Positions 1 through 34,261 of a stretch of 35,054 nucleotides of DNA are shown here, piece by piece; the stretch's first letter is position 1; each line of letters starts with the position of its first letter. The translations under genes and the position numbers were made by a program. Source of the DNA: Folioceros fuciformis (lineage: Eukaryota). The notes below the pieces were generated by a model. The model was not told where the DNA came from. It saw only the letters and a list, made by a program, of their open reading frames with translations, and did not search any database. The DNA lies in assembly GCA_049999805.1 (NCBI GenBank), contig JBNGIO010004918.1:1-35054 (forward strand), in the 5' to 3' direction.

Positions 1-251
1 TGTCGGCCAGCGGAGGGAGAGCCGGTCGCCGGTGGGCTGTATACTCGGGTGTACGGTTCTCTCTGCTGTCGAGAGAGAGTGGATGAAGCTATGCGACATA
101 GCGGGACATGGCATGATAATCGGGGGGCCTGGCCGAGCTGGCTCACCTGGCACGTGGGCCTCTCGTAGCCCGTAGCCAGAGGTTTTGCTTACACGCAAGA
201 ACAGTGGCAATCTGGGAGCGTCTCGTTGCTCGCCCACCTCTCAACTTTTAG

Positions 252-1823
<1,572 letters not shown>

Positions 1824-7993: not shown

Positions 7994-10900
7994 ATGGAGG
8001 CATGCCAAGGCAGCTTCTGCGACGCCGTGGAGTCTGGATTCGTTACTGATGCCTTTTGCTACGTCTGCGGGGTGAGTTCTCTGGCAATTGTTGTCGCTGC
8101 GCAATTTTACAAGTTGGGTGGGCTGCACAGACTTTGAGGTTCTGGATACCGGGAACTCTGGTGTTAGGCACGTTGGCGTGCTGGGTTGTAGAACTCTCAC
8201 TTCTGGCTTGTGGGTGCAGCAGAGTGGTGGAATGTGGAGTATTTTGATTTTGAAAGTGTGTTTTGTGTTACTTCACGAATACGGGAGGTGCCGATGATGG
8301 TTGAGGCCATGTGCAGGCAGCTGACGAGAGTGCTGGGTGCATCAAGGAAGCAATTAGACTGTTACAGGAGGATGCTTCTTGCTATCCACAGGTTTGGCTG
8401 TCCTGCAAAGGTGACTCAGCACTGGTGTGTTCTCCTTTGCTGAGATATCTGAGAAATGACTTGACTGTTCTCCAGCCGTCAGAGAGCAGAAAAAAATTTA
8501 CGCTGAAAAAAACTGTTGCGAAGTTGACGAAGGCATGCGACAACATCGAGGGAATCAAACTCCAAGTACGAAGGCACGCTGTTGTGCATGCACTGTAGAT
8601 TTGCCTATCGGCAGCTTGTGGATTAGTGACAGTCTGGGAGGGATGGGATGTATTTCGGCTTGGAGCAGATGATGGGCCTGCGGGAACAAGTGCATACGTT
8701 ACAGGAGAAGCTTAAAGCTAATCAAGAAGATCATGTGAGAACTTATCCTGTACAGAACATTCGTTATACATGCCGTCCAGCTTTCTTGGAATTCTCAGCA
8801 TTAGTGTCATCTTGCAGCTGGAGGCCCTGAATCGGATGGATGCTTTCGCCATGGACATGCAAGTACGCTCTTTCCTGTCTTTCCTTTGCGAGAGACATGC
8901 TTGAAGAAGCAAACTCTGCTGGAATCTGGCTCCCTCAGGGGTATTGGTGCTTCTGCTGAGCAGGAGACTCTGCTACGCCTAAAGGAAGAGGAGGATGAGA
9001 AGAACCGGCTAATGCAGGAGCTGGAGGAGGCTAACTGCGCATCAGAGACGTCAAGAAATGTATGGTGGCTCGTTTCATCAAAGAGCAATGTTGCAACATC
9101 TTCTGGAGGGTTTGACCTGGCCTGAATATGATTGTGGTTTCTCCTAACTTCAGAAGTTAGAAGCCAAAGAGAGAGAGCATGAACTGCGGCTGAAGGAGCA
9201 CTCCAAGCTCACTGATGATAATGCTCATTTGAGGTTTCTACCAGAACAAAATCCCTGGCATTTTGTCAGCTGTTCCAGTTCGGGATCGAGTTGAAAGTAG
9301 ATGTTAGTCTCCAGTAGCTCATCGTTTTCGTGCCCCCTCTCCAGGTCAGAGAACGAAAGGTTGAAGCGGACTGTGATTGATCAAGAAATGCAATTGAAGG
9401 AAAGTGAATGTGCTCAGAAGAACGCATCCAAGGCTTTGGCTCAGCTTGACAGATTCAAGGAGGTGATGCCTGTCTCATTGTAAGGTGGCAGGAGTTTGCC
9501 TAAGTATCTTGGTAGACTAGGACGAAGTTTGAGCAACTAAAGAGGCTCATGTAAATGTAACGTTTTGACAGGTTGTTGCCAAAATAACCGCAGACAACAT
9601 GGTTTTTCTCATGAAGGTGTTCTAAGGTGTATGGATCCTTTGTTTACCCTGTGTGCTCTACATGTGCTTGTAGGGAAGTCTTTATAAGTGTCACCCTTCT
9701 CGGTCGCTTCTCATTCCCTACATTTGTTTTTGTTGACTTGACCCGCAACATTTCATTTTTGTAACAGCTCAAACAAAGTGAGGCCGCTCTTGCAGTTGCT
9801 CAAGAGCGCATAACCAACATGGAGGAAGAGGTATTGAGCGGGTCATGCTGCAAGTCATGCGTTGTGCAGCCAAATGTCCCCTTGCAGACTAAGTGAGCCC
9901 ATGTTCTGCAGCGTTCTATGTGGCTTGAAGAAGCTTCTGCCGAGATAGAAGGAGCGGTTCGGGCTGGTTTAGGCAAGGTATCATTCCTTCTGTGTGAGGT
10001 AGAGATGACTTATCGAGTCATTTGCCTGATAAATGAGAGATCTAGACTTACCGAGTGAGATGAGTTCGGTGGCAGTCAGTGGAGTCTGAGACCGAGTTGG
10101 AGGTTCTGTATGGTGAGCGACAACAATGGGAGAACAAGGTGCAGGAGTCGCAGGAACGCATAATGAAGTTGGTCAAATCGAAAGAAAGGCTTGAGGAGAG
10201 GTAGATCAATCGTGTACCTCTTGCTTGCAAACGTTGTGATTGGATTCATTGCTTATCTGAACGGTATTACAGTGCATGATAACCTTTCATTGATTAGTAC
10301 ACAACCCGTTTGTCTCGTTCGATAGGTTGAATGCTTTAGAAGATGCGAACTCCAAACTGCAGTTCAGCTTGGATGAAGAGAAAAAGCAGAGACACAATGC
10401 TGAAGCTGAGGCGCGGGTTCTACTAAACAGCTTGAAGCAAAGCAACGATGAGGTTTTGTGTAGCTCTTTGATTCATGCTCCCGTTACTCTCTTGTGGCAA
10501 CTTGGCAGTCACTGTTTGTACCATGCAGCTTGTTGAAGCACAACGGAAATACGATGTGGCATCTGACGAACTTAAGGTAGGCTTGCATAAAGCTTTGACC
10601 TAGTTCCAGTATCAAAGTCTCACAGATCCCTTCCCTCGTACCTTGTTTGCGACAGATGGCGAGCAAGAGCCTTGCAGAAAAGCAAGAGAAAATGGAAAAC
10701 TTGTTTGTGGCCTTGAAGAACAGCTCCCTTCAGCTTGGAACTCAACAGGCCATAAATGCTGCCATCATGAAGAAAAAGGAAGAGGTATAGCTTTTCTGTC
10801 AGAATCAGTTCTTGGTATTCTTTCCAACGACCTAACTGGACCTATGCAGATGGAGTGGCGGTGTTTAGAAGCTGAAGCTCAACGAGAAAAAATGCGGAAC

Positions 10901-10996
10901 AAACTGAAAGGTATATCGGGATTATGCGAATGGTGAGGTGCACTTATGTTATTCTTAACACCAAATTCCCATGCAGGGCGTTCAGGCACTAACTGA
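7994..10996 (+). CDS. Uncharacterised long coiled-coil protein, ~17 short exons
   Basis: Chain of phase-compatible GT-AG exons (approx. 7994-8071, 8317-8391, 8476-8565, 8669-8734, 8818-8862, 8939-9059, 9154-9232, 9345-9462, 9572-9616, 9768-9830, 9912-9977, 10076-10200, 10326-10452, 10529-10576, 10656-10784, 10850-10910, 10977-10996). Gives E/K/Q/L heptad-rich sequence ending QQAINAAIMKKKEEMEWRCLEAEAQREKMRNKLKGRSGTN*. The first exon and start are less certain. Confidence 0.8.
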
Positions 10997-11436
10997 CGTA
11001 CTCACACAACCCGACGCGAAGGATTAACTTACTCCTTAAATATAGTTATCACTTATTATTAAGTTAGATATAAATGTTTTTATGTACAAATGAAGTAATT
11101 AGAATGGAGTATATATATTTGGTATATTAATGAGGTCTAAAATTATGCTGATTAAACTTCAGATTTTGTTGGACATTTAGATGGCCAAGTTGGGCATGCT
11201 TAATAGCCAATGTCTCCAAATGGCTCCGGCTAAATGGACACAAGTTTATAAGAACTTTGACATTAAGCATCATGTCCCAGGATGGGATGTGAATTGATAG
11301 ATAATCAAATAGGATGTGCTAGATGGGATGTGTATAGAAAAGGATATCCTTTTGAGTAGAGTACAAAGACACTTTGAAGAGGGTGAGTAGAGATCCCAAG
11401 GTGGTTCTTGGCATTCTAACATTCTTGGCCAAACAC

Positions 11437-11485
11437 TAATCTAGTCCATGTGTCTCACCACAAATGAGACATATGGACTAGATTA
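11437..11485. repeat. 21-bp near-perfect inverted repeat with a 7-nt loop
   Basis: taatctagtccatgtgtctca-ccacaaa-tgagacatatggactagatta; 20/21 Watson-Crick pairs plus one G:T. Confidence 0.9.
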
Positions 11486-11601
11486 AATCACTTCACATAA
11501 TACCAAACTTTTATGCAATTCAATTCAATTTCATTCTAGCAAGGCAAAAGCAAATTTAATCTTTTGTTGTGAAATCTTTTCCAAACATAATAATTACTTA
11601 T
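11485..11601 (+). repeat. Diverged direct repeat, copy A (copy B at 25240-25360)
   Basis: aaatcac.tcacat...aattcaattcaatttcat...cttttgtt...aaatcttttcca.acataa is shared with 25240-25360. Confidence 0.75.
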
Positions 11602-12052
11602 TTAAAATATTAATCTTCAAATAGATTTTTATAAGGTAATATTTATGACTTATTTTCCAGCAATGAATAAGTATAAATGATTGGTTGGCCCACAAGCTAA
11701 AGGAAGGTATCACAAAAAAGGATAAAATGTATGTTTTTTTATGAATTTTTTTTCAACCTTAAATAACTAAATAGTCGTAACCCCCTTATACTTGTGTATG
11801 TAACCTAAAATATTGTATTTATTATCTTGAAATTCAAGCGACTACATAAGGTCTAACTTTGAGATTTTCACTAAATCTTTAAAGCAAGAGAGGAGTATGG
11901 TTTTGTTGTCCTTGTAGACATTACTGCATGTTGAGGTTTTGTTCATCGATCTTGGCTACAGTTTTTCCTTCATTGTATGAGTCTTTTGCTTAGCATTTCT
12001 TTGTTAAATCAGCCACATATATAGGGGTGGTGGTTAAACACTAAGGCACCAC

Positions 12053-12865
12053 ATGACACAACAAAGCAAAGTGTGCAAAGTGTCTGATTGCAAGGAATTT
12101 GGGAAAAAGGTGCACCTTAAGGACCAAGCTCAAGGAATTGAAGGAAAGAGAATGAAATATGGCGATCATACAGTGTGGATACCGTACGGCAAGGAATCAA
12201 ACAAACAAGGGTCCATATCACACACGCAAACACAAAGCAACATCGAGCAAGATGACAACTGCAGTCTTGGAATAATTATATACCACATCTAAAACACAAT
12301 TCATAGATGTTGCAATTCCTCCCAAATTTCAAGGTGGTGCACCAAGTAACCAGCCGCTAACAATTTATATTTCACATGCTGAGTGGGTACAGGATCCAGA
12401 TACATATATAACAAATATGTCAATGTCCATGGAGGGATCCATGGATGGTGACGACAATGATGTGGATGATGGATCCATGGATGGCGAACTCGATGATGTG
12501 GATGATAAATCCTTGAATGCTGAAAATGATGCTATAGATGATGAATTTCTAGATGGTGAATGAGATGATGTGGATGATGAATTCATAAATGGCAAACATG
12601 ATGGTGTAGATAATGCATCCTTGGATGATGAACAAGATGATGAATCCGTGAAATGTGAGAGGATTTCAAATCCAATTATGTATGAAGGATATGTAGAAGG
12701 AATTCAAAGTCGAACTTGCTTAGAAAAATTGAAGCTCATCCACCCATCTAGGTCAATTTATAACCAATAAGTTAGCATAAGAGAATTCACCAAGGGTGTG
12801 CGCCTAATTGGCGTATTCCACAAAGCCCATTTGGTGCACATTTGAGTTTACATCATCCTAGTCAC
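12053..12865 (+). pseudogene. 5' part of a decayed gene of unknown function with an acidic tandem-repeat linker; probably continues at 23993
   Basis: Protein-like frames with scattered stops and one frameshift (~12290): MTQQSKVCKVSDC...; TSKTQFIDVAIPPKFQGGAP...SMDGDDNDVDDG...IGVFHKAHLVHI*VYIILVT. Confidence 0.5.
12438..12644 (+). repeat. 36-bp degenerate tandem repeat (~5.7 copies) encoding 12-aa Asp-rich units
   Basis: SMDGDDNDVDDG / SMDGELDDVDDK / SLNAENDAIDDE / FLDGE*DDVDDE / FINGKHDGVDNA / SLDDEQDDE. Confidence 0.85.
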
Positions 12866-13189
12866 ATATCTATATTTTATCCTTTTTTTTCAAAAACTAC
12901 TTATATTGACGTGTGGTGGACATAATCGATCTCCATATATTTGCTTGAAGCCCACAACCAGGTGGAACCTATGGCCTTTTAACTCCAAAAATTGAAGAAA
13001 AAAAAGAATCTTACTTTCAGTGCTCCGATCTACCGACCCATTAAAGTTTATGTTTTATGGAGAGGAAACCACCTATCTGCATCCCATGTATTAAAAAACG
13101 ACATAATCAAATATGTTCATAATCATAATATACTATCCACTTCCACTAATCTTACCATCCCCTCTAAACAAAAACATGAACGTCTTGGT

Positions 13190-14250
13190 TGGCCTTAAAA
13201 TCGACAACTACATTTACGTCTTTAAGGCGCTGGCCCTCTGTGTCTCCGAAGTCGTCTCCCTCCACATCCAGAATAGAGAAATACGGGTCGTTCACGGTCT
13301 AAGGCGGAATTGTCCCATTCTCATCCTATACAGTCATAGCATAAAGGTCTTCCGTTGGTCTGTCGTCCACTTGTGAAAGAATCTCTCCTTTTTTTTCCCA
13401 ACGAACTGAATACCTATATTTGACGGTCAACGCTACCATCCGCGCACACTTCTTTGTCCCAAAGCTTCACGGGCCCGTGCGAGAACAGTTCTGTGCTAAT
13501 CTCCTCATCAGAGTCTGGCAAAAAGCCTATGCCATTCACCCACTACATGATCTAAGTGGAGCATCTTATATCGAAATCCACTACAATAGCATGCCTTCCT
13601 CTTTGAAACACAGATTGTGGAAATGACCCAGATCCTGCGCAAGCATCTACTACCCGGTCCCCTTCTACGGAGAACATATTCGCCAACCTACCCATTAAAT
13701 CAAGGGGCTTCTAATACGGTGAGATGACTAGAGAATTTGCGAATAGATGTTTCTTCACCACAGCTCCATGCCTTATAACTCGCAAAAGAAGGAATCCATG
13801 ATCCGCAAATAATGGAGCTTTTGTGTCTTGAGCTTCAGAGTGAACTGCACTTCCAACAGTTAAATACTCAACAGTCTCTACTGCGCCTGCATTGGGAGGT
13901 ATGTTAGTCTTCTCTCACACTAAGGTCTGAATGGTTCCCTTCTTGCACCATGGCCAAAGTGCTTCCCTAGCTTGTGTAATCAGATCCACGCCGTGCATGA
14001 GAACCAACCTATACACATTACTGCCGGTGCATTCTGAAACCTTCGAATCATGTCCTCAAGCTCTTCGCTTGTCATCTACCTATCGTATTCATGTCGTTGC
14101 AGTCCGTGAAGCAAATCTGCAAATAACAGAGTATACGATCATTTTACCATAAATGCTTTCATCTCCAGAATGTTTTCGATGGATAACTTGATAAACAGGT
14201 GAAATTTGCCAGGATACATGTCATGAAACAGGACGAGGGGGCTAGGCCGC
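13190..14250 (-). pseudogene. Decayed beta-class N4-cytosine/N6-adenine DNA methyltransferase (N6_N4_Mtase-like)
   Basis: Manual translation: GKFHLFIKLSIENILEMKAFMVK*SYTLLFADLLHG (motif IV-like, 14120-14103)...frameshift ~14040...IQTLV*EKTN...VEYLTVG...VISPY*KPLDLMGRLANMFSVEGDRVVDACAGSGSFPQSVFQRGRHAIVVDFD (SAM-binding motif I, 13647-13624), then an acidic tail. Confidence 0.8.
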
Positions 14251-14975
14251 TGAAATGCCAAAGGGGGGCCACATGGGAGCAATATTGCTGTATACGAGGC
14301 TATGTGGCAGGATTAGCTGTAAACAAAGGGGTGCAATTATTGTCGACGGGACTGTTTGCAACGCAATGTTAGCGCTGAATGGTGTCTTCTCTTTCACAGA
14401 GAACCTAGGGGAGGAAAGTAGGCCGGTCTACCCCACCCGTGAGGACGGTGTCTCTGGGTATGAGGGCTTCATTTTGATCCTCATGCAATGGACCGTACAA
14501 CCCACACAGCACACAACCTATTGCCTGAATTGGGCTACACGTTCATCTTAGTATAGGGAATGACCCATATAATGAGGGCGTCCGCCATATCACAAGATTA
14601 TTCATAACGATGGGCTAGAGTTCAAGCAGGCCTCGGCCGGCCAGCGCCTGAATGTCTAAAGACCAATAGATACTAGTTTAGCAATCTCATAGCACATGGA
14701 AACGGGGGTGGCCAGTCGGCAACCATTTAGAATTTCGCATGCCATGATCTTCAAACCATAAATACACATAATTAGGCTGGCATATGGGTTTTGCATTCAA
14801 AGGCTTGTGATATAGACTATAGTAAATATCGCTAAGGGTTCTCATTTGATGTTCAAAAGACAAGATGTACCTTGCAATGGCTGCAAACCTCTTCCTAGTT
14901 AAAACAGTTCACACAAGCCTGGCTCAATATCCCTTAGCGCGTGCGAAGGGCTATTTGTGGTGAGCTAACCACGGT

Positions 14976-15982
14976 CACGAAAGTGCTTCCCGCAGATAAA
15001 ATTGAATGATTTAAAAATTGCCCAGTCGTTCCCCAAAAAAGATCTTGCCCTCCACTCTACAATTGACTTTTACCGTCAATGGTCTTCTAAATGAATCATA
15101 GTCATTCATTGTGGCTCCCATCCGTTTCCACATTAGTCGATGCCTTGATCACACCTCCCAGCTCATTCAAGTTTTCTCTTATCCCCTTCTTGTCTGCTGC
15201 ATACAGATGTTTCCGAGCAGTGAGGTGGAAGCCATAGTATAAGATGACAGTGTCACTTAAGAACAACTCTTGTATGTTTTTGGGGTAAACATTCTTCTTG
15301 CGATGACGCTCTCCCCTTCCCTTTCCTTGCATGCCTCCTCCCCTGACAATGAACTCCTCTACACATCTTCCCTCATATGCGTCTGTATGCTCTGTTCTGT
15401 ACCAATGCACAAGAATACTTGGTTGTGGTCCGTCGTTCCGCACATCCTCCACATTCCCTATCCAGAACGATTTGATGTGCATATCCGTGCAACAAGGGGT
15501 TGCGATGAGCATTCCTTTTTGGATTTCACTAATATCGCCATTCACACGCTCCATCTCCTCCTCTTGCTTGCTTGGTCGGCGATATCCTCCCAAGTACATG
15601 TCCCGCGGTGGGAGCTCCCTCAATAGAGCGGAGTCTAGGATGGTGACGTCCGGTACATGCAGGGGTATAGCTATGTCAGCGGTTGCCTCTCAGGAAAACC
15701 AAATCCAAGGACTCCGGAGAGGCAAAACTTGCTTGTCTAAAAGTGTGTGTGCTATCTCCTCCTAGTGTCGCTAGAACTCCATTTGCGAGGCCTTCTCTCA
15801 GATGCACAAGTCCCTCAACTGAATTCAAGGCGCCTTCTATGCCTCTCTTGTCCCTTGGAAGGATTGAAGAGGAGCTGCAATAATATTCAGCGATGGGGCG
15901 AATTTGAGAAATTCTAACCCCCCTTCCGTCTCCTACATGCCCGATGTTGCATTCGATTTTATTTACGGGAAGCACTTTCGTG
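14976..15982. mobile_element. 1007-bp segment bounded by 33-bp terminal inverted repeats (non-autonomous DNA transposon-like)
   Basis: cacgaaagtgcttcccgcagataaaattgaatg (14976-15008) matches the reverse complement of 15950-15982 at 30/33. No target-site duplication is visible. Confidence 0.75.
15102..15800 (-). pseudogene. C-terminal fragment of a probable transposon-encoded protein inside the TIR-bounded segment
   Basis: ORF 15623-15102 (KGMLIA...FWIGNV...ILVHWY...YEG...ILYYGFHLT) extends upstream in frame through a few stops (MEF*RH*EEIAH...WFS*EATADI). Confidence 0.55.
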
Positions 15983-16095
15983 CTGTCAACATGTACTTTT
16001 GGGGGTACACATAGCTTTTGCTCCGATGCTTTGACATCTTCGCGCACTCTGCTTCGAGACGGTCTCTATGCGCATCCACAGTAGCTTGATATTTC

Positions 16096-16266
16096 TGTAA
16101 CTAAGTTGGCTTGAGTGGAAGCTAGTTGGAAAACTACTTTATTAATAAAAGTAAAATCAATACAATACAATAGATTGCTTAAATACCAAAAGTCGGTAAC
16201 GGTTCACTAATGCCTATTTATCAAAAAGATTAAATAAGGTAGTTAATGTTTATACTTATTTTAACA
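16096..16266 (-). repeat. 3' LTR of the Copia element (171 bp)
   Basis: 169/171 identical to 22124-22294; preceded on the minus strand by the polypurine tract GAGGGGG (16273-16267). Confidence 0.97.
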
Positions 16267-17044
16267 CCCCCTCGTAAACTTAAAGCACTTGAAATAAGGA
16301 AAATGAAAAATAAATGGATAACGCAATGACCACACGCTGGTTAGATCACGGTATCGCGAGGCTGGCCAATGGTGAACGTTTGGTACAGATTGCGAAAACG
16401 GCCATGAACGCGCAGAAGCAAAACATAGGCAACCGGTCGCGATCGACCAGTCCCAAGACGGGATCTTGCAGCCCCGCCACGTGTCGCTGGCTGCTTGGCA
16501 ATCGGCATGGCTGGATACGAATGGTGAGAAGCAACAATGGCGATGGGTGGCTGGTGTCGAGGCGCCCGCTCTGTCCAGGCGCGCAGCCATGGCGCTTGCG
16601 CTGTCCAAGAGCGTGGCCATGGTGCCCGTGCTGTGGCAAGACGGGCTTGCGCCCGGGTTGTGCAGGCGCACGGCCTGGATGCCCGCGCTGGCCAGGCGCA
16701 CTGTGCACTGTGTCCAAGCGTGCTGTTTGTTTGGCTGGCCCCTCTTCCCCAACGGGCGCAATGTTGTCCAGATTGAGGCGTCCAGATCTGGCCTGGAAAA
16801 CAAGAGCTGGTGTGAGCTGTGCGTCGGCAACGAGAGGAAGGCTGTGGAGGCGTGAAAGCTAGCAAGCAGGCCGGCGATTGGGTAAGGACTGTGAGCTTCA
16901 TCCACCGGGTGTTGCTGCCTCCAGAGCTGTGAGAAAATAAGCTTGAGTTGTGCAGATCATCCGAGAAGCATGCTGGAACGGAGCCGGACTGTGAGGGCGG
17001 CAGCATGAAGGAAACGCCCCCTCGTAATCAGACAGGAGGGAAGA

Positions 17045-20000
17045 TCAATGATCGAAGTAGGGTGAGAAATCGTGAAGCCCCAAGCCGGCCATGTGAAAAT
17101 AATGTCGATGCTTGGGCAATCCTTTGGTGAGGATATCTGCTGTATTCTCGTCTGTCCCCACATAGCTGACCTTGATAACCCCTCGTTCCACAGCGTCTCG
17201 AATATAGTGATGCTGCGTTTCAATATGTTTTGTACGTGCTTGATATTTGGGATTGGCCACTAACTCCAAAGCAGACATGTTGTCACAGAGTATCTGCGTT
17301 GGCTGGAATTGGGTTTGGTCGATGCCGGAGAGGAAGTTGCGATCCCATTCAGCCTCCTTCGAAGCCTCCGTTAAAGATTTGTATTCAGCTTCGGTGGAAC
17401 TGAGTGCAACAGAAGTTTGTTTCTTCGAACACCATGTAGCATAAGGTGTTGATGCAGGTCGGGCTTGGTCAAGGTTGAATTTTCGTAAAATTTTATTTAC
17501 ATATTTAAACTGATGTATGATCAATTTGCCTTCTGATCTAACCCTGAGTAACTGTATGCCCAAGCAGAAACGTAACTCGCCGATGTCCTTCATATCAAAC
17601 CGAGCAGTGAGCTGTTGTTTGACATGAGATAATAAGTCCTGATCATTGGTGGCCAAGATGACATCGTCGACATAAAGTGCCAAGACGACCACAGATGGAC
17701 CCTTGGTAAGCTTATACACATTAGTGTCTGCTGGGTTTTGTATAAAATCAATACTGATTAAGAATTGATGCATGGTAAAATACCATACGCGTCCACTTTG
17801 CTTTAAGCCGTAAATACATTTTAAAAGCTTAAGGACTTTATGTGGGTATTTCTGATCTTCGTATGCCTCTGGCTGTAACATGTACAGTTCATAATCAAGT
17901 TTGCCATACAAGTAGGCTGTGCACACATCCATCTGTTGAAGATCTAAGTCGAATTCAGTAGCGTAAGCCAATAGGATCCGTATGGACTGGGATCTGACTA
18001 CTGGAGAGAATGTCTCTTGGTAGTCAATTCCCTCCACCTGTGTGAAGCCACGCGCAACTAGACGTGCCTTGTAACGTGCAACTTCACCCTTTGCATTTAG
18101 TTTCAATTTAAATACCCATTTGCATGAAATAGCTTTTCGGCCAGGTGGCAAATCAGTTAAGACCCATGTTTGATTTTTTACCAGGGATTGATATTCATCT
18201 TCTACAGCGGCCTTCCACTGCATGCTTTGAGGACCAGTAAAGGCTTGGGTGAGGGATGTGGGTTCATCTGGCAAGGAGTCTTTAACAGCAAGATGGGATC
18301 TAAAATCTATTGACTGATAAGGGGGCTCCTCCCATTCTGCAGGTGGTGCATGGTGACGTGTGGAACGTCTAAGGGCAGGGGCAGGCACATCCGCAATAGG
18401 TGGGTCATCAATAACATGCGGAGCATCATGCGCATCCTGAACAGGTAGGTCATCACGTACATCAGGAACAGGCAAAACCACATCATGCTCTTCAGCAAGT
18501 TCCTCTTGTACTGGATGTTGATGTTCGGGATCGTCATGTGGGATGGGAGGATTAGGGATATCTAACCCATCTCCTGCTAGGGAAATTGCAGGATGGTTGG
18601 GTTCATCCGCATTAGGGTCATCAAGGGGATAATCTGCTGCTTCAGCCGTAGAGGTATCTGTCTCAGTATCCACTTGTATATCATCTGATGTGGCTGGTGA
18701 ACTTCTTTCTAGAAATGTCACACTACGTGCCAATACAATATCTCCTTTATCAGGATTATATAGCTTGTATGCTTTAGCTTGTTCGCTGTAGCCTACAAAG
18801 ATGAGAGCCTTTGCCCTAGGGTCAAGTTTCTTACGTTTCTTAGCAAGTATAAGAGCAAAAGCCTTAGATCCAAAAACTCTTAGATGTGCTAAACTTGGTT
18901 TCTTATGCCAGAATGCCTCATAAGGTGTCATGTGTGGGACTGAACTTGTAATAATCCTGTTCAGGATATAGGTAGCTGTAACAACAGCCTCGGCCCAATA
19001 TCCTTGAGGTAAGCCTGCCCACAATAGCATGCTCCTGGTCATATTAAGTACAGTCTGATGGTTTCGTTCTGAGACACCATTTTATTGAGGTGTGTAGGGC
19101 ACAGTCAATTGCCTGAGGACACCAGCTTCTTGAAGGAAGGAGTCAAAAGATGGATTGACAAATTCGGTACCATTGTCAGTTCTTAATATTTTAAGCAGTT
19201 GTCCTGATTGCCTTTGAGCCGTATGAAACCAGTCCTTGAAGAAACTAAATGTGTCACTTTTATATTGCATTGGGTATGTCCATGTATAGCGGCTATAATC
19301 ATCTGTTAGGGAAAAAAAGTATTTTGAGCCTCCCAGGGAAGGTTCACTGATTTTTCCTGATATGTCCGCATGTACTAACCCAAGTGGATGTGTTGCCCTA
19401 TGTGAAGAAGCACTTGGAAAAGGAAATTCCTTTTGCTTTGCTAAGATGCATGTTTCACAAATGGGTAAGTGTTTGAAGCACTTTGGAAGGGGTTCCTTAT
19501 GACATTCCGTAACAGACATGTCAATTAGCTTAGACCTGTTGACATGCCCTAATCTAGCATGCCATAAGATGGCTTCCTTTGCTGAACTTGACTGAGATTC
19601 TCCTGCTGAATAAGCTGAATGTTGTGCATCAGCTGCTGGTTGACAAGTAACGTCTAATCTGTAGAGGTCTTGTACAGGTAGTCCTTGAAATACACATGTG
19701 CCAGGAGAAGATCGTCGATAAAAACAGCAATGCTCATGATCTGCCCGTAGATTGAAGAGCTGTAGATGCATGAGCTGGCTTAAAGACATAAGATTTTTAG
19801 CCATAGTTGGGACGAGAAGGACATCCTCAAGGAGCAGGGTTGTTCTGTCATGGAGACTGAAAATACAGGTACCTTTTCCCTGTATTTGCAAGCTAGTTTT
19901 GCTTTGTTCATCTCCTAACAAGACCTTATCACTTCCTGATACAAGTTGTAGAGTGGTGAACAAGCTTCTATCCTTGCAGATATGTGTGGTAGCTCCGGAA

Positions 20001-21073
20001 TCGAGATACCAACAACCGCCATCATTCAGAGAACTTGACAAGCACACTGTGAGTATCTTCACCTGTGCTTTCGATCCTCCTGATGCTTCTTTGACTACAA
20101 GACTAGCAGCCTGTTTAGGATGTTTTTGAGGTTCACCTGCCCGCTTCTTACGGCATTCCTTTGCCCAATGTCCAGGAATTCCACACCAATTGCAATTGCC
20201 AGGACATTTGGCAGTTGATTGAGTGTCGCCTCGTTGACCAGGTGAAGAGCTGCCTTTGAATTTTCCTTTGCCCTTGAATGGTGGGCCTTTCCGAAAATTC
20301 GATGCAAACACCTTTCCTGATCTGTTCTTGGATGATCCAAAAGTAAAGGTGCGACTTTGCTCCTCTTGAAACAACGCACCGATTACCTCTTTCAAAGTAA
20401 CGGTCGTGGTTGCACCAGATGAAGAGGCAGTTACAGCAGCTCTAAGGGGACCATTCTGGCTGGTCACAAAAGTCTGATATGATGGGGGAAGAGTGGTGAG
20501 AAACTGCGCCACTGCATCTACTTCTGACATCTTGTCGCCAGTCAACGAGGTGAGCTGAGCCCTAAGATGTCGAAACTTGGTAGTGTGCGCTACCACTTTG
20601 TCCCCCTCTTTCATTTTGAGTGTAAAAAACTCTTGTCTGACTGCGCATAGCGTCATTAAATTTTGTACTTTATATGTTTTCTCCAGATGATTCCAGGTCT
20701 CACTAGCTGAGTTATAGAACTCAATGTCAGGGACAAGATCTGCATCAAGCCCACTGATAAGAACTGCTACGGCAATTGCATTGTGTTGGTTCCACTTGGC
20801 TATGTCATCAGGAGTTGGAGCCGGGGAAGCCGTGGGATCAGGTTTAGGGTATGATCCATCCACAGTACCCCACACACCACGTGCCAGCAGGGTGGCCTTC
20901 ATTCTGACACGCCAGGTGGAATAGCCGTCCCCCTTGAACCTATCCTTTTCACGTAGTTCTGATGTAAAGGTTGGGGTAGCAGTTGTAGCCAAGAGGGCTG
21001 ATGGTGATGGTGGAATTAATGACAGATTCTGAAAACTGCTAATCAGTGTGTTTAATTGTGCTGCAGTGAACAT
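17045..21073 (-). pseudogene. Copia gag-pol polyprotein with one in-frame nonsense codon and an internal RT/RNase H deletion
   Basis: Gag YSTWRVRMKATL, zinc knuckle CNWCGIPGHWAKEC, protease WYLDSGATTH, WHARLGH/CETC, integrase LVHAD...LRTDNGTEF...YTPQ*NGVSER (TAA 19084-19082), RT YKARLVARGF and LYVDD, RNase H SSTEAEY...CDN...ADILTK. The two ORFs are in the same frame. Confidence 0.93.
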
Positions 21074-22111
21074 GAACGCACCTAGAAGGACAGTATGGGG
21101 TTATGACCCAACCGTAGCAACTAGGTGTATGCGTACAAAGCATACGTCTACTAAAAGAAAAGACTGCTCTTAGTATGTGAGAAAGGAAGGTTGGGGGGTT
21201 TCACGAGGGAAGGGAAATAACCCGGAGTTACACCCCGCTCACGCCAAATTCCCCCACTTTCCTTTCAAAACAACTTAAGAGCAATAATAACCAAGAAAAT
21301 ATTAAACACACTAAAGATAGGAAACGACACAAAGTGCACCTCTTCATTCAAAAGAAAAAAAAAAGGAGCCGACTGATACTAACCGCTCATGTCCCTTGGG
21401 TGTGCAGACCTGGACCAATGAGGTAGCGCGCCAGGTTCTTTGGTGAAGAGGCGTGACGGAAGAGGCGCCGTTTCAAATCAGGAGCCGGTCAGTGTCGGAT
21501 TGCTCCTACGCCTCAGCCCGCCACCGCGCTACAGCAATCGCTTCAAGATTGTGGTGGGGATGAGGGTGAGGCCAGTCTCTCGTGTTGGAGTTACTCCGCA
21601 GTGGCGAGATGATCAACCAGTTGCCCTTGAGTAATGAGGATGCGCGACAGGAGAATCTCGCCCCGATCCAATGTTGATTGCAATTTCTTCGAGATGCATC
21701 TGAACTCCGATCTGTGGATAGCCGTCGCTCCTTCCCGCTGACCAAAAGTGGTGTGTGTTGGATCAGATTGGTGCAGGACGGGAGATGGTTGAACAGCGTC
21801 TGATGCCGGCAAGCAATCAAGGTTGGGAACCGGTGATCGGTGGTAAGTTGGAGTCGGGCCTCCTCCACAGACACATCCACGGCGAGAGCCGCTAGCTGTC
21901 GTCTTTGCGATGGGAAAGCGGTCGGGATGTTGGGGCCGATATCCGGATTGTGCACGGCTGTATGAAGTGAGTACCGCGTCTAGTAACGGAGGAACTCCAC
22001 ATCTCAGCGCGCGTTTGTCTTGGTAGCCATACCGTAGGGACTCCCCTTGATGAGTTCTCCTATGGTAGGCTCCCCGTCGCGGCATCGCTCATGTACAGGA
22101 TCCAGAGCAAA

Positions 22112-22123
22112 GCTCTGATACCA
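22112..22123 (-). other. Primer-binding site complementary to the initiator tRNA-Met 3' end
   Basis: TGGTATCAGAGC on the minus strand, directly inside the 5' LTR. Confidence 0.95.
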
Positions 22124-22294
22124 TGTAACTAAGTTGGCTTGAGCGGAAGCTAGTTGGAAAACTACTTTATTAATAAAAGTAAAATCAATACAATACAATA
22201 GATTGCTTAAATACCAAAAGTCGGTGACGGTTCACTAATGCCTATTTATCAAAAAGATTAAATAAGGTAGTTAATGTTTATACTTATTTTAACA
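22124..22294 (-). repeat. 5' LTR of the Copia element (171 bp)
   Basis: Differs from 16096-16266 at two positions only; adjacent to the PBS and the TSD. Confidence 0.97.
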
Positions 22295-23380
22295 ATTTCT
22301 CTGCATATAGTATTCACGACATGACAGTTAGCGATAATCTCGACTCACTGATAATATACAACGTCACTCTTTGGTGAACAGATGCACCGCCATCACGCAC
22401 TTTTAGGGTTCAGCCACAACAACTACGCTAAGTATCACTACGTTTGATAGCGGGCCATAATCACTTAGGGCGCCGGCTAGCCGGCGTCGTCACACTACTG
22501 ACTTGACTCTATGCATTGTATGCTGGCAAGAGACAGAAGCTCACTATGAAGTGTACACTTTTGTTTGCCGTATGCACGGCCATTCCTGGCAAGATGACAA
22601 CACCATAGATGGAAGAAATTTAGAGCACATGTTGTGTCCCTCACCTTGTTCGACCTTCGATTGGGTGTTCTTAATCGTCGCCTTCAAGCGAGCACACAAT
22701 GCACAGTGGAGAAGCGGTTTGACTTTGGAATCTTCACTCGACTAAAGTTCACCTTCCGCAACTTCAAGAACAATTGGTAAGTTATACAGGGAATTTGTGC
22801 CCGATCACAATGCCTTCTATACTGGCTCCATATCTCTAGTTTTGTATACGTGTCTGGTAAATTGTATACTTCCACATTTGGTAGCCTTTCTGCCAATACC
22901 AAGAAAGCATTGTTCATCCAGGCTATGGCATTCTCACTTGATGATCCACTACGAGCCGGATTACTTCTAACATTATACTAGAGCGCGTTCTCGAGAACTC
23001 GACCCTTCAGCTCCTCATACCTCTTGTGACCCAAGGAAAACACTCGTCGAAAAGCCCGTAAGCAGCATTGTATAGGCTCATGTCCTCTCAGATGGGTGCT
23101 GACCTTAAAAGGCTCGCCGTGGGCTGTTTCTACTTTCAGCAAAGATCCTAAAAATGTCTCCTGCTCTTGCCGGCACATCTTGAGGAATCTGTACCTTTGC
23201 TCTTGAAATGTTTCCTTCGTCAACCGCATCACGCATATTTGGTTGCAACAGTATTTTTTGAAGTCCAAAGTAATCGCTATTCCTTTGCTTTTGTGTAATG
23301 GAACGCCACTACTGCATCTATGTTGATGCAGGCATGTGTGATGAGACATCTCCCTTAGACTCTCACTCATTGGCTTGCCT

Positions 23381-23501
23381 TGATATGCTCTAGGGGGGGC
23401 TTTTGTAAATGGCTCGTCACTTGCATCATCCATGACGGCAAGCCAATGATATGCTCTAAGAGGGGCTTGTGTAAATGGCTCGTCGCTTGCATCATCCATG
23501 A
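23381..23501. repeat. Two-copy 66-bp-period duplication inside the transposase-like ORF
   Basis: Encodes MDDASDEPFTQAPLRAYH and MDDASDEPFTKAPPRAYQ on the minus strand. Confidence 0.9.
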
Positions 23502-23992
23502 AGGTTCTTTCGATTGAAGGCGCCCTGTCATCAACTCTATTGGCATGAGGCCAGTGTGAGAATAGGTTGCGCCTAGCACGGTTGTCCAATGCCCCATTGC
23601 CACTATATTGCCTTTGTGATCCTCTCGTTGGCATCCTTTGTCTGGGACTCATAGACATAGCTGAGTAGAGGTTCATGTTCCGCGGAGTCCTGGTAACTGA
23701 TGCAGGGACATCGGGTAAGGGCAACACTTTAGAACCTGAATGTTGCAGACTTCACCATATTCCTACATAGCAATTCTCGTGTCACAGCTCCAGACAAAGA
23801 ATCGTATGATTGTGCACAATGAAGATCTTACCGCAAACTGTACCTTGGCGCGATGAGATTAAAGCCGGCTAGCCGGCGTGACCCGAAGGTTCCATCGTTG
23901 GATTCAGATGGCGACTCTTCCTCCTGTGGGTTTCACGTAGGGCACCAGCCAGCCGGTGCCCATCCTCGTGGAGTGCATGGAATCCTAGTCAC

Positions 23993-24440
23993 CCCTTGGA
24001 TGCCCCACCTCGCTTAACACTAGGTAGTATGGGGTTTGTTTAGAGATCATGCCTATGGTATATTAACACACATAGAGGAGACTGACGATTTTTGCCATTG
24101 TCTTCTTACAGCAACTCAAAAATATTGAGTACTTATCGAAGTTGCCAGATGCTTTCCAAAACTTCGTTTTCAAAGTGAATAACTAGAAGGGCCTCGAGAA
24201 CGAGCAAAGGGCATTGATGAACAAGAATTTAGAGGATGGGTTGCTTCCTTTCCTGTTCCCTGACACAAATCAATTAATGATTCCAAACAAATCTTTTGTG
24301 GTGATTACCCAAATACAAAAGAAGCGGCATATACATCGAATACTTTGAGAATTAAGATGTATCTATGGGGAGTACAATACAAAAGTGCACTAAGATCATG
24401 TGTAGGTGAGCCATATAAGATTATTTTAAATTTCCAGTAG
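23993..24440 (+). pseudogene. 3' part of the decayed plus-strand gene, ending in an AP2-like DNA-binding domain
   Basis: VVWGLFRDHAYG...LIEVARCFPKLRFQSE*LEGPRERAKGIDEQEFRGWVASFPVP*HKSINDSKQIFCGDYPNTKEAAYTSNTLRIKMYLWG...IILNFQ* follows the AP2 pattern (KG...WVA...I(F/W)xGx(F/Y)...EAA...LNF). Confidence 0.55.
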
Positions 24441-29486: not shown

Positions 29487-31570
29487 TTTGCGGGTGAACC
29501 GATCTTCCCAACATCTCACGCTTCATGCATGTCAGACCAACAGTGCTGGGTGTGGAGTCGCGAGCCTTCGCTGCAGGAGCTTGATTGTGGCTGACGAGTA
29601 GTGGATGTCGACTGAAGAGGTTACCAATCGTACAGCCCCTTTCAGTTCTGTTTTCCGTGTTCAAGTGAAGCTGTTGTGGTGTGACACTTACCTTGTTGGT
29701 GACTGTAGGCATTGCAGCATTCGTCGTCGAAGGCTGTGGTGAGATTCGCATGCAGGTTTTGGTTGATATTAGGCAACGCCGTCATTGGAGACAAGAGTCC
29801 TTCAGGATTACCGCAAGCCACACCAGGGATGAGCAAGAGCAAGGGTCGTTACGAGGTTTCCAATTTGAGCTGGTTGTAGTTCTTGGTTTCCGGATATCCC
29901 AACAAGCGGGTTGAGATCTGCTTAATGCACTATGTCGTTGTTGGGTGAAGATGTACTTCGGCAGGATTATGAACAAATGATATCCGCCAGTGTAATATAC
30001 CATTCGGGCGCGCCATGCTGATCAATAAGCGGTAGTGGGCGATGGCTGGCAAGATTAAAACTTGTGCTTGGCAGGATTCAGCGTTGTAACGTGCATGATT
30101 CAATCTATATGTACTCTGTTCTCGTTGATATCGAGGTGACTTTTGAGGCTTAAGTGGTGCCAAATAGGTTCCATTTGGGTGAGAGTTTGGTACTCTGATG
30201 TTGCATTTGTTTGGCTCTTCACATATATATCTGTAAAGGCTGCTGAAGGCGTGAACTCTCACAGTCCTAGCCCTGGATTGTTGGCGAAATGATGTCGAGG
30301 AGTTGGCTGTCACCATTCCATTGGTAGCAACAGCTGGGATGCTGACACTCGAAAAGGCTGGAGAAGGCACAAATATGTGCACGCTTGGGAAGCTCGCATT
30401 ACGGCAGCAACAGAGGTTAGTAAACCCTGCACGCGTGTATAAGTGAAATCCCCATAGGGAGTCGACCGCGCGCGGGTTTACCGTACTTTTAAGGTCTTTT
30501 AGTGATTCATTGCTTTCTAACCATGTAACTGATCTCAATAATGGTACTTACATTTTATTTTTAAATACATATTTTTATTATTCACACCTTTTACTATTAT
30601 TTCAAATAATTTATATTATTATATGCATTGTCTGCTATTATTTATCTTAAATACAGTATTAAACTGCCAAATAAAAGCCGCAATCTTCGGACGAGGAAAC
30701 ATTGTGCTTGCGGACTTGAGAGCTTCTTGAAACCGGGCGAGGAAACTTGTTGCGTGTGTCCAGACCTTCGGACCTTGATACCTGGAGAGGAAACTAAAAT
30801 AAATAAATAAATACCCAGAAAGGAAAATATGTATTTCATTACATTACTATTGTTGCTCCAGATCACGGTGCTCACGCACCTTGAGGGGCTTCAGGGGTGT
30901 ATTTCGGTACCTCTCTCGCCAGCGTTCTGAAAATCTTGAAGATCTGCTCCAAACGCATGCCCATCCAGCTTCACATACACCTGCGACTGCGTGAGGACGT
31001 CTATGTGTGTTGTGGGGAACCAAATGAGAAGCGAGAATTCGACGGATGTGGAACCGTGGTTGCACGTTGCATGACACGATGTAGAGACGTGAAAACACGA
31101 GAGTGTCTGCCTGCACCACCGTTCCGAAGGCATGAACGGCTTCGTTGACATGACCTTTTTACTCACGATGTCGGACAATGTCACCTCGCTGCAAGATTGT
31201 TGTGAAGCCGAGTGTAGGCTCTCCAAGGAGTTGCCTTTGGCAGGGTCCTTGTTTGCTCATGGTCGGTTGGTTCCTTGAAGTCGGGTCCGCTGGAGGTCAT
31301 CCTGTAACTCCCGTGAACTTCCTCACGGCCGTCGCTGAAGGACAGCCGTGAACCTATGGATGCAACAGACATGCACAAAGGTCGCACTTGAAGCATCTGA
31401 TGTGACTTGACAGGAGCATGATCTCATGGCCTTATTGTATTCAGAAAGGTGAGTAGTTTCCGTATGCCGGTTTGTATGCTGCTCCAACATTTGGTGTTGA
31501 AATTGTGGGAGCATGGATGCTTTGCTCCTCTTCAGCTGGATGGTAGGTTCAGTAGATTGCCTTGCCGATA

Positions 31571-34261
31571 ATGGCTGCATGGAGCATCGCACTTCACTCG
31601 CACAGAGGGGGACAGTGCACGTCGTGCCAACAGCTCTTCTGGAACCCACAGAGGATAGTTCGTGGCATCACAGGTGTCGCAGGACAAGGGTACGATGTCC
31701 TCGCTTGGACGGGTCAAGAGCTAGGTGTCCAGCCAGGCCTTTTGGCTAAGCAATTCGTACAGGCCGGCTTTGTCAGGACTGCAGGATCTGGAAGGGGCGT
31801 AACCGCCGAAATTGCGAGCAGACTGTGTCGGCAGGGGCAGGTGTCACAATCTGTTGAGGCTCTGGGGGTTTTGGTGCGAATAGACTGTAGTATTCCACAG
31901 TCTCTCGTCTATGAAATCCTCAGAAGCTTTGGGGTTAATAAGGACCTGGTTCTGGGTCGCCGGGTCCATGCTCTTGCCGTGGAGACGGGCTTCGAGTCGG
32001 ACACGTTCCTGTGCAATCATTTTCTGCGAATGTACGCGTCGCATGGCATGTTGCAAGAAGCTATGGATGTGTTCACCATTGTTGGTGAACCAGATGCCTT
32101 CATGTGGTCTTCCATTATATCTGCGCACGTTCAGCAGGGACAGGCCAAGCAGGCCATAGAGCTCTATCACCAGATGTGCAGAACATCAAGTGTGAAGCCG
32201 GATAGGTATGTGTATGTTGCAGCACTACAGGCTTGCGCAAGGGGGCAAGACTTGAAAACCGGGCACCAGGTGCATGCTCATGTCTTGGCCAGTGGGGTTG
32301 AGACCGATGCATTTCTTTCTAATTGCTTGGTCTTCATGTATGCAAAGTGTGGCAGCTTCGGCGATGCCAAAAGATTATTTGAAGGCCTTCCATTCAAAGA
32401 TGTGGTCACATGGACCGCTCTGATAGGAGGATATTTCCAGCAGGGCAGGGGTCTGGACGCTCTTCGTCTTTATGCTGCTATGCAGGAAGACGGTATGGTT
32501 GCCCCTGATTCCGTGACATTTGTGTGCCTCCTGCAGGCGTGTGCAAGTGTTGGTGCCCAAGCTTTGGAGATAGGCAAGCAGCTTCACGCACAAATCAGCG
32601 AACGAGGCATTCAGCTGGATTTGGTTGTGGCCAACAGTTTGGTAGATATGTATGCAAAATGTGGAAGTCTTGAGGGTGCCCAGGGTGTGTTTGATGGACT
32701 GGGTCACAAAAACGTGATAACGTGGAATGCCATGCTAGCCGGATATTCCCAGCAGGGCCTGGGTGAGGAAGCTCTTCATTTATATGCTGCTATGCAAAAA
32801 GAAGGCATGGCACCCCCAGACTCTGTTACGTTTATTTGCCTCCTCAAGGCTTGCGCCAGTTTGGGACCCCCGGCTTTGCTGATAGGGAAGGAGCTTCATG
32901 CACAGATGGAGTGTGGAGGGCTTCAGGGTGATGTGGTCATGGGTTCCAGCCTGGTAAACATGTATGCCAAATGCGGCAGTCTAGAGGAGGCTCAAAGTGT
33001 GTTTGATGGACTTGGCGAAAAGGATCTGGTTACTTGGACAGCGCTGATGGCAGGATATTCCCATTGCGGCATGGGTCAGAAAGCCCTTGAGCTGTATAGT
33101 GCTATGCGAAATGAAAGCAGTGTAGCACCTGATTCTATGACGTTTGTGTGCCTACTTCAGGCATGTGCAAGTTTGGGTAACGCAGGCTTTGAGACAGGGA
33201 AGGAGCTGCATGCACAGATACGAGAACGGGGTCTGCAGTGTGATCGGGTGGTAGGCTGTAGCTTGGTAAATATGTATGCGAAATGTGGCAGTCTCGAGGA
33301 TGCCCAGGCCGTATTTGATGGCCTTGATCAAAAGGATGTGGTTACATGGAACGCCATGATAGCAGGGCATTCTCAGCAGGGCATGGGTCAGGAAGCCCTT
33401 CAGCTGTATAGTGCTATGCGAAGTGAAAGCAGTGCAGCACCAGATTCTGTGACATTCCTGTGCCTCCTTCAGGCATGTGCAAACGTGGCAGCTTTGCGCA
33501 TGGGAAGGCATCTTCATGTTCAGATTGAAGAACAAGGGCTTCAAGCTGATGTGTCGGTCGGCATCAGTTTGATAAACATGTATGCAAAGTCTGGTAGCAT
33601 GCTGGATGCACAGCAGGTATTTGATGGCCTCCTTCGAAAGGACATCGTGGCTTGGAATGCTCTGATTGCAGGATACACCCGTCATGGAGACAGTGACATG
33701 GTCTTCAGCCTTGTTCATCGAATGGGAGAGGCTGGCGTACAGCCAGACAGCATCACATTCGTCAGTGTGCTAACAGCCTGCAGTCATGCAGGTCTGGTGG
33801 ACACTGGGCGAGACCTCTTCGAGGCCATGAGCAGGCAGTATGGCATCCCTCCGAACGGAGATCACTATGCATGCATGGTGGATCTTCTGGGTCGTGCAGG
33901 CCAACTCGACGAGGCGATGGCAGTTGTGAGGGACATGCCTGTACTTCCCAACGCTGCAGTGTGGCACACTTTGTTGGGTGCATGTCAAAAATGGGGCAAC
34001 GTAGATGTGGGATGCCATGCCTTCGAAGAAGCCGTCAAGCTCGACGAGAAAGACGCTGCAGCGTATGTTTTGATGTCGAACATATATAGTAGCGCCCGGA
34101 TGTGGGAACAGGCACAGAGGACGCAGCGAAGGAGGTTAGAAATTGGAGCTTGGAAGGAACCAGGCCGGAGCTGGTGGACAGACTTGAGTGGACTAGTGCA
34201 TAGTTTTGTAGGCTGCGACATACGCATTTCGAAAGTAAAGGCATTTATCCAAATTTATTAG
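31571..34261 (+). CDS. PLS-class pentatricopeptide repeat protein (~20 PPR motifs, E1, E2, WW-type PG box, DYW domain absent); organellar RNA-editing factor type
   Basis: Intronless ORF with repeated P/L/S triplets (VVTW.A.I.GY, SVTFVCLLQACA, LV.MYAKCGSLE.A), P2-L2-S2 (VLTACSHAGLV, HYACMVDLLGRAG), E motifs, then KEPGRSWWTDLSGLVHSFVG and a stop 15 codons later. Confidence 0.94.
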   Translation: MAAWSIALHSHRGGQCTSCQQLFWNPQRIVRGITGVAGQGYDVLAWTGQELGVQPGLLAKQFVQAGFVRTAGSGRGVTAEIASRLCRQGQVSQSVEALGVLVRIDCSIPQSLVYEILRSFGVNKDLVLGRRVHALAVETGFESDTFLCNHFLRMYASHGMLQEAMDVFTIVGEPDAFMWSSIISAHVQQGQAKQAIELYHQMCRTSSVKPDRYVYVAALQACARGQDLKTGHQVHAHVLASGVETDAFLSNCLVFMYAKCGSFGDAKRLFEGLPFKDVVTWTALIGGYFQQGRGLDALRLYAAMQEDGMVAPDSVTFVCLLQACASVGAQALEIGKQLHAQISERGIQLDLVVANSLVDMYAKCGSLEGAQGVFDGLGHKNVITWNAMLAGYSQQGLGEEALHLYAAMQKEGMAPPDSVTFICLLKACASLGPPALLIGKELHAQMECGGLQGDVVMGSSLVNMYAKCGSLEEAQSVFDGLGEKDLVTWTALMAGYSHCGMGQKALELYSAMRNESSVAPDSMTFVCLLQACASLGNAGFETGKELHAQIRERGLQCDRVVGCSLVNMYAKCGSLEDAQAVFDGLDQKDVVTWNAMIAGHSQQGMGQEALQLYSAMRSESSAAPDSVTFLCLLQACANVAALRMGRHLHVQIEEQGLQADVSVGISLINMYAKSGSMLDAQQVFDGLLRKDIVAWNALIAGYTRHGDSDMVFSLVHRMGEAGVQPDSITFVSVLTACSHAGLVDTGRDLFEAMSRQYGIPPNGDHYACMVDLLGRAGQLDEAMAVVRDMPVLPNAAVWHTLLGACQKWGNVDVGCHAFEEAVKLDEKDAAAYVLMSNIYSSARMWEQAQRTQRRRLEIGAWKEPGRSWWTDLSGLVHSFVGCDIRISKVKAFIQIY

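Follow-up and report, generated by a model that had tools for sequence, protein, structure and literature searches.

A decayed copy of a repeated beta-class DNA amino-methyltransferase-like gene, probably mobile-element cargo, in the land plant Folioceros fuciformis

The DNA examined here is a stretch of 35,054 nucleotides from Folioceros fuciformis (NCBI GenBank assembly GCA_049999805.1, contig JBNGIO010004918.1, positions 1 to 35,054 of the forward strand), referred to below as the window, and all of it is land-plant nuclear DNA. On its minus strand lies the remnant of a gene for a methyltransferase-like protein of the beta class (Pfam family PF01555), interrupted by stops and a shift of reading frame. 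When the stops are read through, the relic occupies frame -1 from 14243 to 14037 and frame -3 from 14046 to 13450; this read-through piece, with X at the stops, served as the query P0001. The relic comprises the following elements.

14243-13450, minus strand: remains of the coding sequence of a PF01555-type (beta-class) methyltransferase-like gene, delimited by tblastn and a subfamily profile, with six stops and one frameshift
14141-14139, minus strand: in-frame stop TGA
14103-14117, minus strand: motif IV remnant D-L-L-H-G, inside YTLLFADLLHGL, aligned to DLPRGL of the relatives P0002, P0005, P0006 and P0020
14078-14076, minus strand: in-frame stop TAG
14037-14046, minus strand: frameshift from frame -1 to frame -3, where tblastn segments overlap
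13903-13920, minus strand: V-stop-EKTN, the W-x-K-x-N motif with TGA replacing the nearly invariant W
13917-13915, minus strand: in-frame stop TGA, at the nearly invariant W of the relatives
13705-13722, minus strand: SPY-stop-KP, the [SN]PYQKP motif with TAG replacing the invariant Q
13713-13711, minus strand: in-frame stop TAG, at the invariant Q of the relatives
13624-13647, minus strand: motif I, the S-adenosylmethionine (SAM) binding motif DACAGSGS, inside LDLMGRLANMFSVEGDRVVDACAGSGS, with D, G and G invariant in the family
13554-13552, minus strand: in-frame stop TAG
13545-13543, minus strand: in-frame stop TAG

The order of these motifs on the minus strand (IV, W-x-K, xPxQKP, I) is the beta permutation and is colinear with the methyltransferase CcrM in a profile alignment, in agreement with a first-pass annotation that had been made from the sequence alone. 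The peptides named in that annotation are all present and in order, including VEYLTVG downstream of V-stop-EKTN and GRHAIVVDFD after motif I. Motif I lies exactly at the positions it had given, whereas its range of 14120-14103 for YTLLFADLLHG covers ADLLHG only, the full peptide extending from 14135 to 14103. The frameshift it had placed near 14040 was recovered as a change of frame between tblastn matches, from -1 (14186-14037) to -3 (14046-13450), and the stops at W and Q are, as it had proposed, each one transition from the conserved codon (TGG to TGA and CAG to TAG). The catalytic motif IV of beta-class enzymes is (D/N/S)-P-P-(Y/F/W), and the DLLH of the relic does not match it. Because of the six stops and the frameshift the copy in the window cannot be active; it is non-functional and without any present role as a protein.

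Against the Pfam profile PF01555, P0001 scored 19.8 bits (E 8.1e-4) over residues 113-160, which correspond to motif I only, and the long six-frame read-through scored 15.9 bits; the match to this profile that the first-pass annotation had anticipated was thus obtained, but below the gathering cut-off of 26.7. The relic also touches FtsJ in Pfam (E 0.0077), and a scan of NCBIfam with the relic returned only a chance-level match to BchM (E 0.1). A phmmer search of 1.84 billion representative proteins gave 14 matches at E<=1e-3 (best 1.2e-12), nine of which were judged true relatives (P0002, P0003, P0005, P0006, P0009, P0010, P0012, P0013 and P0015). The remaining five were rejected, three as LVIVD-repeat proteins (P0004, P0008 and P0011) and two as repetitive proteins (P0007, which is without PF01555, and P0014, judged by eye only). 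The segment QRGRHAIVVDFD (P0001 residues ~139-164, window ~13641-13564) attracts false phmmer matches to bacterial LVIVD beta-propeller repeat proteins, and is a pitfall for searches that use the relic alone. The sub-threshold Pfam score, the contact with FtsJ and the five false matches are what could be said for a chance likeness, or for descent from an RNA or protein methyltransferase such as Trm11/UPF0020 or FtsJ.

Evidence drawn from the relatives argues strongly for a DNA amino-methyltransferase instead. A profile built from seven relatives of the relic's subgroup recognised a single place in the six frames of the window, at 14034-13465 with 102.9 bits and E 5e-33, together with a second piece of the relic at 14177-14031 (E 9e-4), and the motifs of relic and relatives are colinear over ~265 codons. 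The PF01555 cut-off was passed by 12 of the 13 family members scanned, the exception (P0020) being a fragment that ends before motif I. In PHROGs the relic matches phrog_67, 'DNA methyltransferase' (E 1e-6), and the relatives likewise match DNA methyltransferase families. Compared with structures in the Protein Data Bank (PDB), the family profile matched TTHA0409 (2zie, E 3.6e-10), CcrM (6pbd, E 3.9e-10), a chain deposited as 'DpnA' (5hek, E 5.2e-10), M.RsrI (1eg2, E 7e-9), a 'DNA cytosine-N4 methyltransferase' (8s9m, E 3.8e-7) and M.MboIIA (1g60, E 3.5e-6), whereas a UPF0020 structure (8vyd) reached only E 0.059. By way of this profile, the relic's motif I can be aligned with the corresponding motif in TTHA0409, CcrM and RsrI. 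The better match to an RNA or protein methyltransferase such as Trm11 or UPF0020, which the first-pass annotation had named as the result that would speak against it, did not appear, since DNA methylases head the matches in Pfam, PHROG and the PDB alike. We therefore consider a chance likeness or an origin among RNA or protein methyltransferases highly improbable and close to refuted, and it is near certain that the relic is, as first proposed, a pseudogene of the beta-class (PF01555) N6/N4 amino-methyltransferase superfamily. A tblastn search with ten relatives revealed no further copy in the window. Elsewhere, an AT-rich stretch at 24097-24264 on the plus strand, with one stop, weakly resembles P0005 and P0020 by tblastn in their N-terminal 55 residues (E 0.005 and 0.011) and was not recovered by the subfamily profile; it may be a tiny second fragment of the same repeat or a chance match, and we do not claim it.

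The relatives form a rare, unnamed family of eukaryote type. Word-index protein searches returned few of them (3, 5 and 0 proteins) and no fused longer forms, the latter being weak evidence. The intact relatives have 286-446 residues with acidic C-terminal tails and look like stand-alone genes. Conserved throughout the family are W-x-K-x-N, [SN]PYQKP and the SAM-binding motif D-x-C-x-GSG, while two subgroups differ in the segment preceding them: all four N-terminally complete members of the relic's subgroup (P0002, P0005, P0006 and P0020) carry DLPRGL, and all five members of the other carry D-[VIF]-P-Y-G-F. From its position and its colinear alignment with 'LIFADPPYN' of CcrM this segment appears to be motif IV; the piece of the CcrM alignment that covers it (domain 1) scores 1.7 bits and is not significant alone. 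In every family member seen the first residue at this position is D and not S. Since the nearest relatives have DLPRGL, the ancestor of the relic's DLLHG was probably already non-canonical at motif IV and not the DPPY or SPPY that the first-pass annotation had cited for the class. In the DLPRGL subgroup the catalytic aromatic residue (Tyr) would be replaced by Arg. Intact relatives may methylate DNA to give N6-methyladenine (6mA) or N4-methylcytosine (4mC). A family tree supports the D-[VIF]-PYGF subgroup as a clade and places the relic, without resolution, with the DLPRGL subgroup, on a long terminal branch (2.32) in line with its decay; the protein most similar to the relic is P0016, with 42% identity over 113 columns. 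In a profile comparison with the canonical bacterial protein P0021, the C-terminal 69 columns only were aligned, at 96.8% probability.

To evaluate the relic's surroundings in the plant's DNA, contigs of public runs from the same organism were placed on positions 8000-24000 of the window at >=80% likeness. X1 and X2 are DNA runs of one sample, and their summed contig depth is no copy number, which counts against reading the following figures as numbers of copies. In X1 the summed word depth was 327 (12806-13339), 267 (13340-13873) and 310 (13874-14407), as against 12.8 in the unique stretch 8000-11203; in X2 the same three bins gave 213, 177 and 210, as against ~10 in the unique flank. In both runs the summed depth over positions 12806-14407 thus exceeds that of the unique flank by a factor of ~20-25; it is as high as or above that of the copia element further along the window (72-237 in X1), and the depth falls to 19-44 in the bins 14408-16543. 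Up to eight distinct contigs overlap single positions in this region, and a unique contig ends at 12834. These observations define one further feature.

~12835-14407, minus strand: high-copy repeat containing the relic, its ends located no more finely than the 534-base depth bins and a single contig break allow

The organism's DNA contains many diverged sequences that resemble this 1.6-kb stretch, and given the depth and the many variants the relic is very likely one of many copies of a repeat. The idea of a single concealed remnant of a host gene gained by horizontal transfer, on the model of the bdelloid rotifer N4CMT or the Marchantia DN4MT1 that the first-pass annotation had cited, is not supported. 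Contigs that hold 151 of the 203.5 depth in X1 carry an extra A behind 14036, so the frameshift in the window is not common to most copies.

A pseudogene of a host gene family could in principle account for several copies, if one horizontal acquisition from bacteria or phages had been followed by ordinary duplication with no mobile element involved; of the readings considered, this one comes nearest to that of the first-pass annotation. The fold and motifs are indeed of bacterial and phage type, and the stand-alone appearance of the intact relatives agrees with such a history. A depth of this order with so many variants is, however, typical of dispersed repeats, and the relic sits in a transposon-rich gap beside a ~1-kb inverted-repeat element and a young copia element. 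The genomes of 185,579 prokaryote species were scanned twice with short patterns, and none of the 12 candidates from one scan or the 4 from the other was confirmed, a weak negative that also counts against this history. The organization of related loci, described next, also argues against this history, which we judge unlikely.

Relatives in their genomic context were obtained from a scan of metagenome contigs, in which the search pattern occurred in 51 stretches and nine were confirmed. Six of the nine (L001-L005 and L007) come from one sample and are diverged paralogues with 67-81% nucleotide identity. The gene order in the metagenome loci is an open reading frame (ORF) without assigned function, a tentatively ParB-like ORF, and a PF01555 methylase with DVPYGF. 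Where the contig extends far enough, the ORF upstream of the methylase is homologous to residues 130-470 of P0010 in L001, L002, L004 and L005, with only its tail present in L003, and in L002 this middle ORF carries one in-frame stop; L001 and L002 have a further upstream ORF without assigned function, 38% identical between the two. The middle ORF matches the ParB helix-turn-helix (HTH) family of Pfam with 21.2 bits (cut-off 22.6, E 3.4e-4), and P0010 (789 amino acids) fuses the ParB-like part with the methylase. The middle ORF of L004 stands between 45-bp tandem repeats that include a palindrome, and related repeats are present in the other metagenome loci. Multi-copy cassettes with repeat arrays speak against a simply duplicated host gene, although fusions of ParB with PF01555 are also typical of phages (PMC12704722), which is a point in favor of a bacterial or phage acquisition.

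Another conceivable source is a large DNA virus that became endogenous, of giant virus or virophage-like kind and now present as a fragment; such viruses often carry PF01555 methylases and can occur in many decayed copies in plant genomes. The sequence is both multi-copy and decayed, and the neighbours assigned to P0005 by a language model belong for the most part to viral PF01555 clusters, albeit those of phages. Against a viral insertion, two short-pattern scans of 2.9 million viral contigs, both weak negatives, revealed no close relative: the first confirmed neither of its two candidates, and the second confirmed 4 of 133, each a match of 52 residues around motif I with 37% identity. No other virus-like domain occurs in 11200-16100. 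We regard an origin of this kind as improbable; it and host-gene duplication are both less likely than cargo of a mobile element.

We consider it probable that the locus represents one dead and degraded member of a multi-copy repeat, most plausibly the cargo of a transposon of the kind known for its accessory genes in algae. The one recognisable gene of the repeat would have encoded a SAM-dependent DNA amino-methyltransferase-like protein of the beta class (PF01555), and would have travelled on a mobile element as one of its accessory genes. Among described systems, the nearest appear to be the ParB-like/DNA-methylase accessory genes of algal DNA transposons, whose proteins are presumed to bind the DNA of their own element and mark it chemically; that the relic belongs to this particular kind we hold to be slightly better than an even chance. 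The copy in the window would since have lost its function through the stops and frameshift described above and the reduction of motif IV to DLLH. Green-algal versions of such ParB/methylase accessory genes are reportedly credited to Iyer, Abhiman and Aravind (2011).

Giant Plavaka (EnSpm/CACTA) transposons of red algae provide the fullest comparison (10.1101/2025.02.11.637652). They carry three accessory genes, of which PAG1 is without assigned function, PAG2 combines a PF01555 DNA methylase with a SET domain, and PAG3 combines a ParB-like domain with a 2-oxoglutarate (2OG) oxygenase and is adjoined by tandem inverted-repeat arrays; PAG2 and PAG3 are also found in Zisupton, Fanzor-encoding and Mutator elements (10.1101/2025.02.11.637652). 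In the brown alga Ectocarpus, the element Sola1-1_Ec32 encodes a ParB-like and DNA methylase protein of 1104 amino acids, proposed as a possible new class of accessory protein that binds and modifies its own transposon (PMC12477816). The relic and its family share with these systems a PF01555 methylase domain, probably within a repeated eukaryotic element, and the relatives share with them an adjoining or fused, tentatively ParB-like protein together with an ORF without assigned function, and, in common with PAG2/PAG3, tandem inverted-repeat arrays that flank the ParB-like gene in the relatives' loci. They differ in that the relic's host is a land plant, to judge by the PPR protein with an E motif, and the copy in the window is the methylase part only; no SET domain, 2OG-oxygenase domain or transposase is seen with the relic, and its subgroup has DLPR at motif IV. 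Our literature search found no paper on such a gene in a land-plant repeat, although supplementary tables, which lay outside the search, may list homologues elsewhere.

Several points weigh against this proposal. A six-frame Pfam read-through of 11200-16100 found PF01555 alone, with no relic of a transposase, ParB-like or other domain, and when the ORFs of the metagenome loci were compared with the window by tblastn only the methylase matched, and neither the first nor the ParB-like ORF. A repeat search of the window found no convincing terminal repeats around the relic. Neither transposase nor element ends are seen, as would suit a host gene. One candidate pair of terminal inverted repeats (12851-12873 and 15623-15645) was rejected, being 74% complementary and a misfit with the depth profile, and inverted-repeat arrays of the algal PAG3 type are absent from the window. 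The designation of the middle ORF as ParB-like is only tentative, because its Pfam match is sub-threshold, it has no PDB match better than E 0.43 and no PHROG match, and a language model favored the fungal family DUF3723 with a score of 0.95, which Pfam in turn did not confirm at E<=1. The DLPRGL subgroup of the relic has never been seen beside a ParB-like gene, its contigs not being among those examined. The relatives all come from unannotated Logan, JGI and ENA assemblies in which host organisms are not given, and the likeness of the algal accessory proteins to the relic's family is one of descriptions, not of alignment.

The relic's family can also be set beside the better known members of the superfamily. 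With the bacterial and phage N6-adenine enzymes CcrM, M.RsrI, TTHA0409, 'DpnA' (5hek) and M.MboIIA it shares PF01555, the motif order and the SAM motif D-x-x-x-GSG, with significant alignment limited to the C-terminal half of the family. It differs from them in having D-L-P-R or D-[VIF]-P-Y for DPPY and SPYQKP for HPTQKP, and in its acidic C-terminal tails and multi-copy loci of eukaryote type. Bacterial-type amino-methyltransferases are reportedly few in land plants (PMC4738411); the Marchantia pair DN4MT1a/b are two tandem host genes with a TSPPY motif and high expression in sperm (10.1101/2021.02.12.428880). Like N4CMT and DN4MT1a/b, the relic belongs to the beta-class superfamily, of prokaryotic origin, and stands in a eukaryotic nuclear genome. 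Unlike them, its family has D rather than S at motif IV with (T)SPPY absent from the members seen, matches N6-adenine enzymes more closely and is a repeat, the comparison with DN4MT1 being one of description only. A likeness of the relic to DN4MT1 or N4CMT is thus not established.

The remainder of the window contains the following features.

258-1823, plus strand: ORF of the UDPGP family (UTP-glucose-1-phosphate uridylyltransferase), 521 amino acids (PF01704, E 1.8e-178)
8473-11523, plus strand: spliced gene, defined by spliced contigs of run X4 (presumed RNA)
12435-12642, plus strand: 36-nt tandem repeat, 5.8 copies, which reads as an aspartate-rich acidic repeat
14976-15982: ~1-kb unit between inverted repeats, with 33-nt arms at 14976-15008 and 15950-15982 that are 91% complementary
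16096-22311, minus strand: Ty1/copia long terminal repeat (LTR) retrotransposon, recognised by its LTR pair and gag-pol
31562-34261, plus strand: pentatricopeptide repeat (PPR) protein of 899 amino acids with an E motif (Pfam)

The UDPGP-family ORF is uninterrupted and intronless in the window, with the spliced gene nearby. Contigs of X4 are confined to that spliced gene, no RNA data set is listed as containing the relic, and this is uninformative about expression of the relic either way. The tandem repeat at 12435-12642 sits just outside the high-depth repeat. The ~1-kb unit encloses most of a 195-amino-acid ORF (15102-15689, minus strand) without a Pfam match and has a contig depth of ~1.5-3 times the unique level. 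The Ty1/copia element is young: its LTRs, at least 171 nt long, are 99% identical (16096-16266 and 22124-22294), its gag-pol (21073-17045, minus strand) is a single frame with one in-frame stop at 19084-19082, and DNA contigs show a joint from 16096 to 22311 across it. A further run of the X1 and X2 sample, X3, gave contigs whose differences from positions 8000-24000 are almost all C>T (823) or G>A (727), and this run looks like a bisulfite-type library. Rfam yielded no family at or above its gathering score in the window.

The copy in the window is itself dead and has no functional consequence. The known eukaryotic cases, the rotifer N4CMT and the Marchantia DN4MT1, are host genes. The relic locus points to another route: here a plant genome contains a PF01555 gene in the form of a decayed repeat, and the relatives of this gene resemble the ParB/methylase accessory genes that were described in 2025 from transposons of red and brown algae. 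If intact copies exist in plants, they would be candidates for element-encoded DNA marking or anti-silencing, and might also confound claims that plant DNA contains 6mA or 4mC. A more specific suggestion, which we put forward as doubtful, is that land plants harbour an undescribed multi-copy lineage of mobile elements with a stand-alone DLPRGL methyltransferase-like gene, intact members of which would be found in other assemblies. If so, the protein could write 6mA or 4mC on the element's own DNA, or could alternatively be a SAM-binding pseudo-enzyme that interferes with host silencing, and either role would extend the algal ParB/methylase accessory-gene system into the embryophytes.

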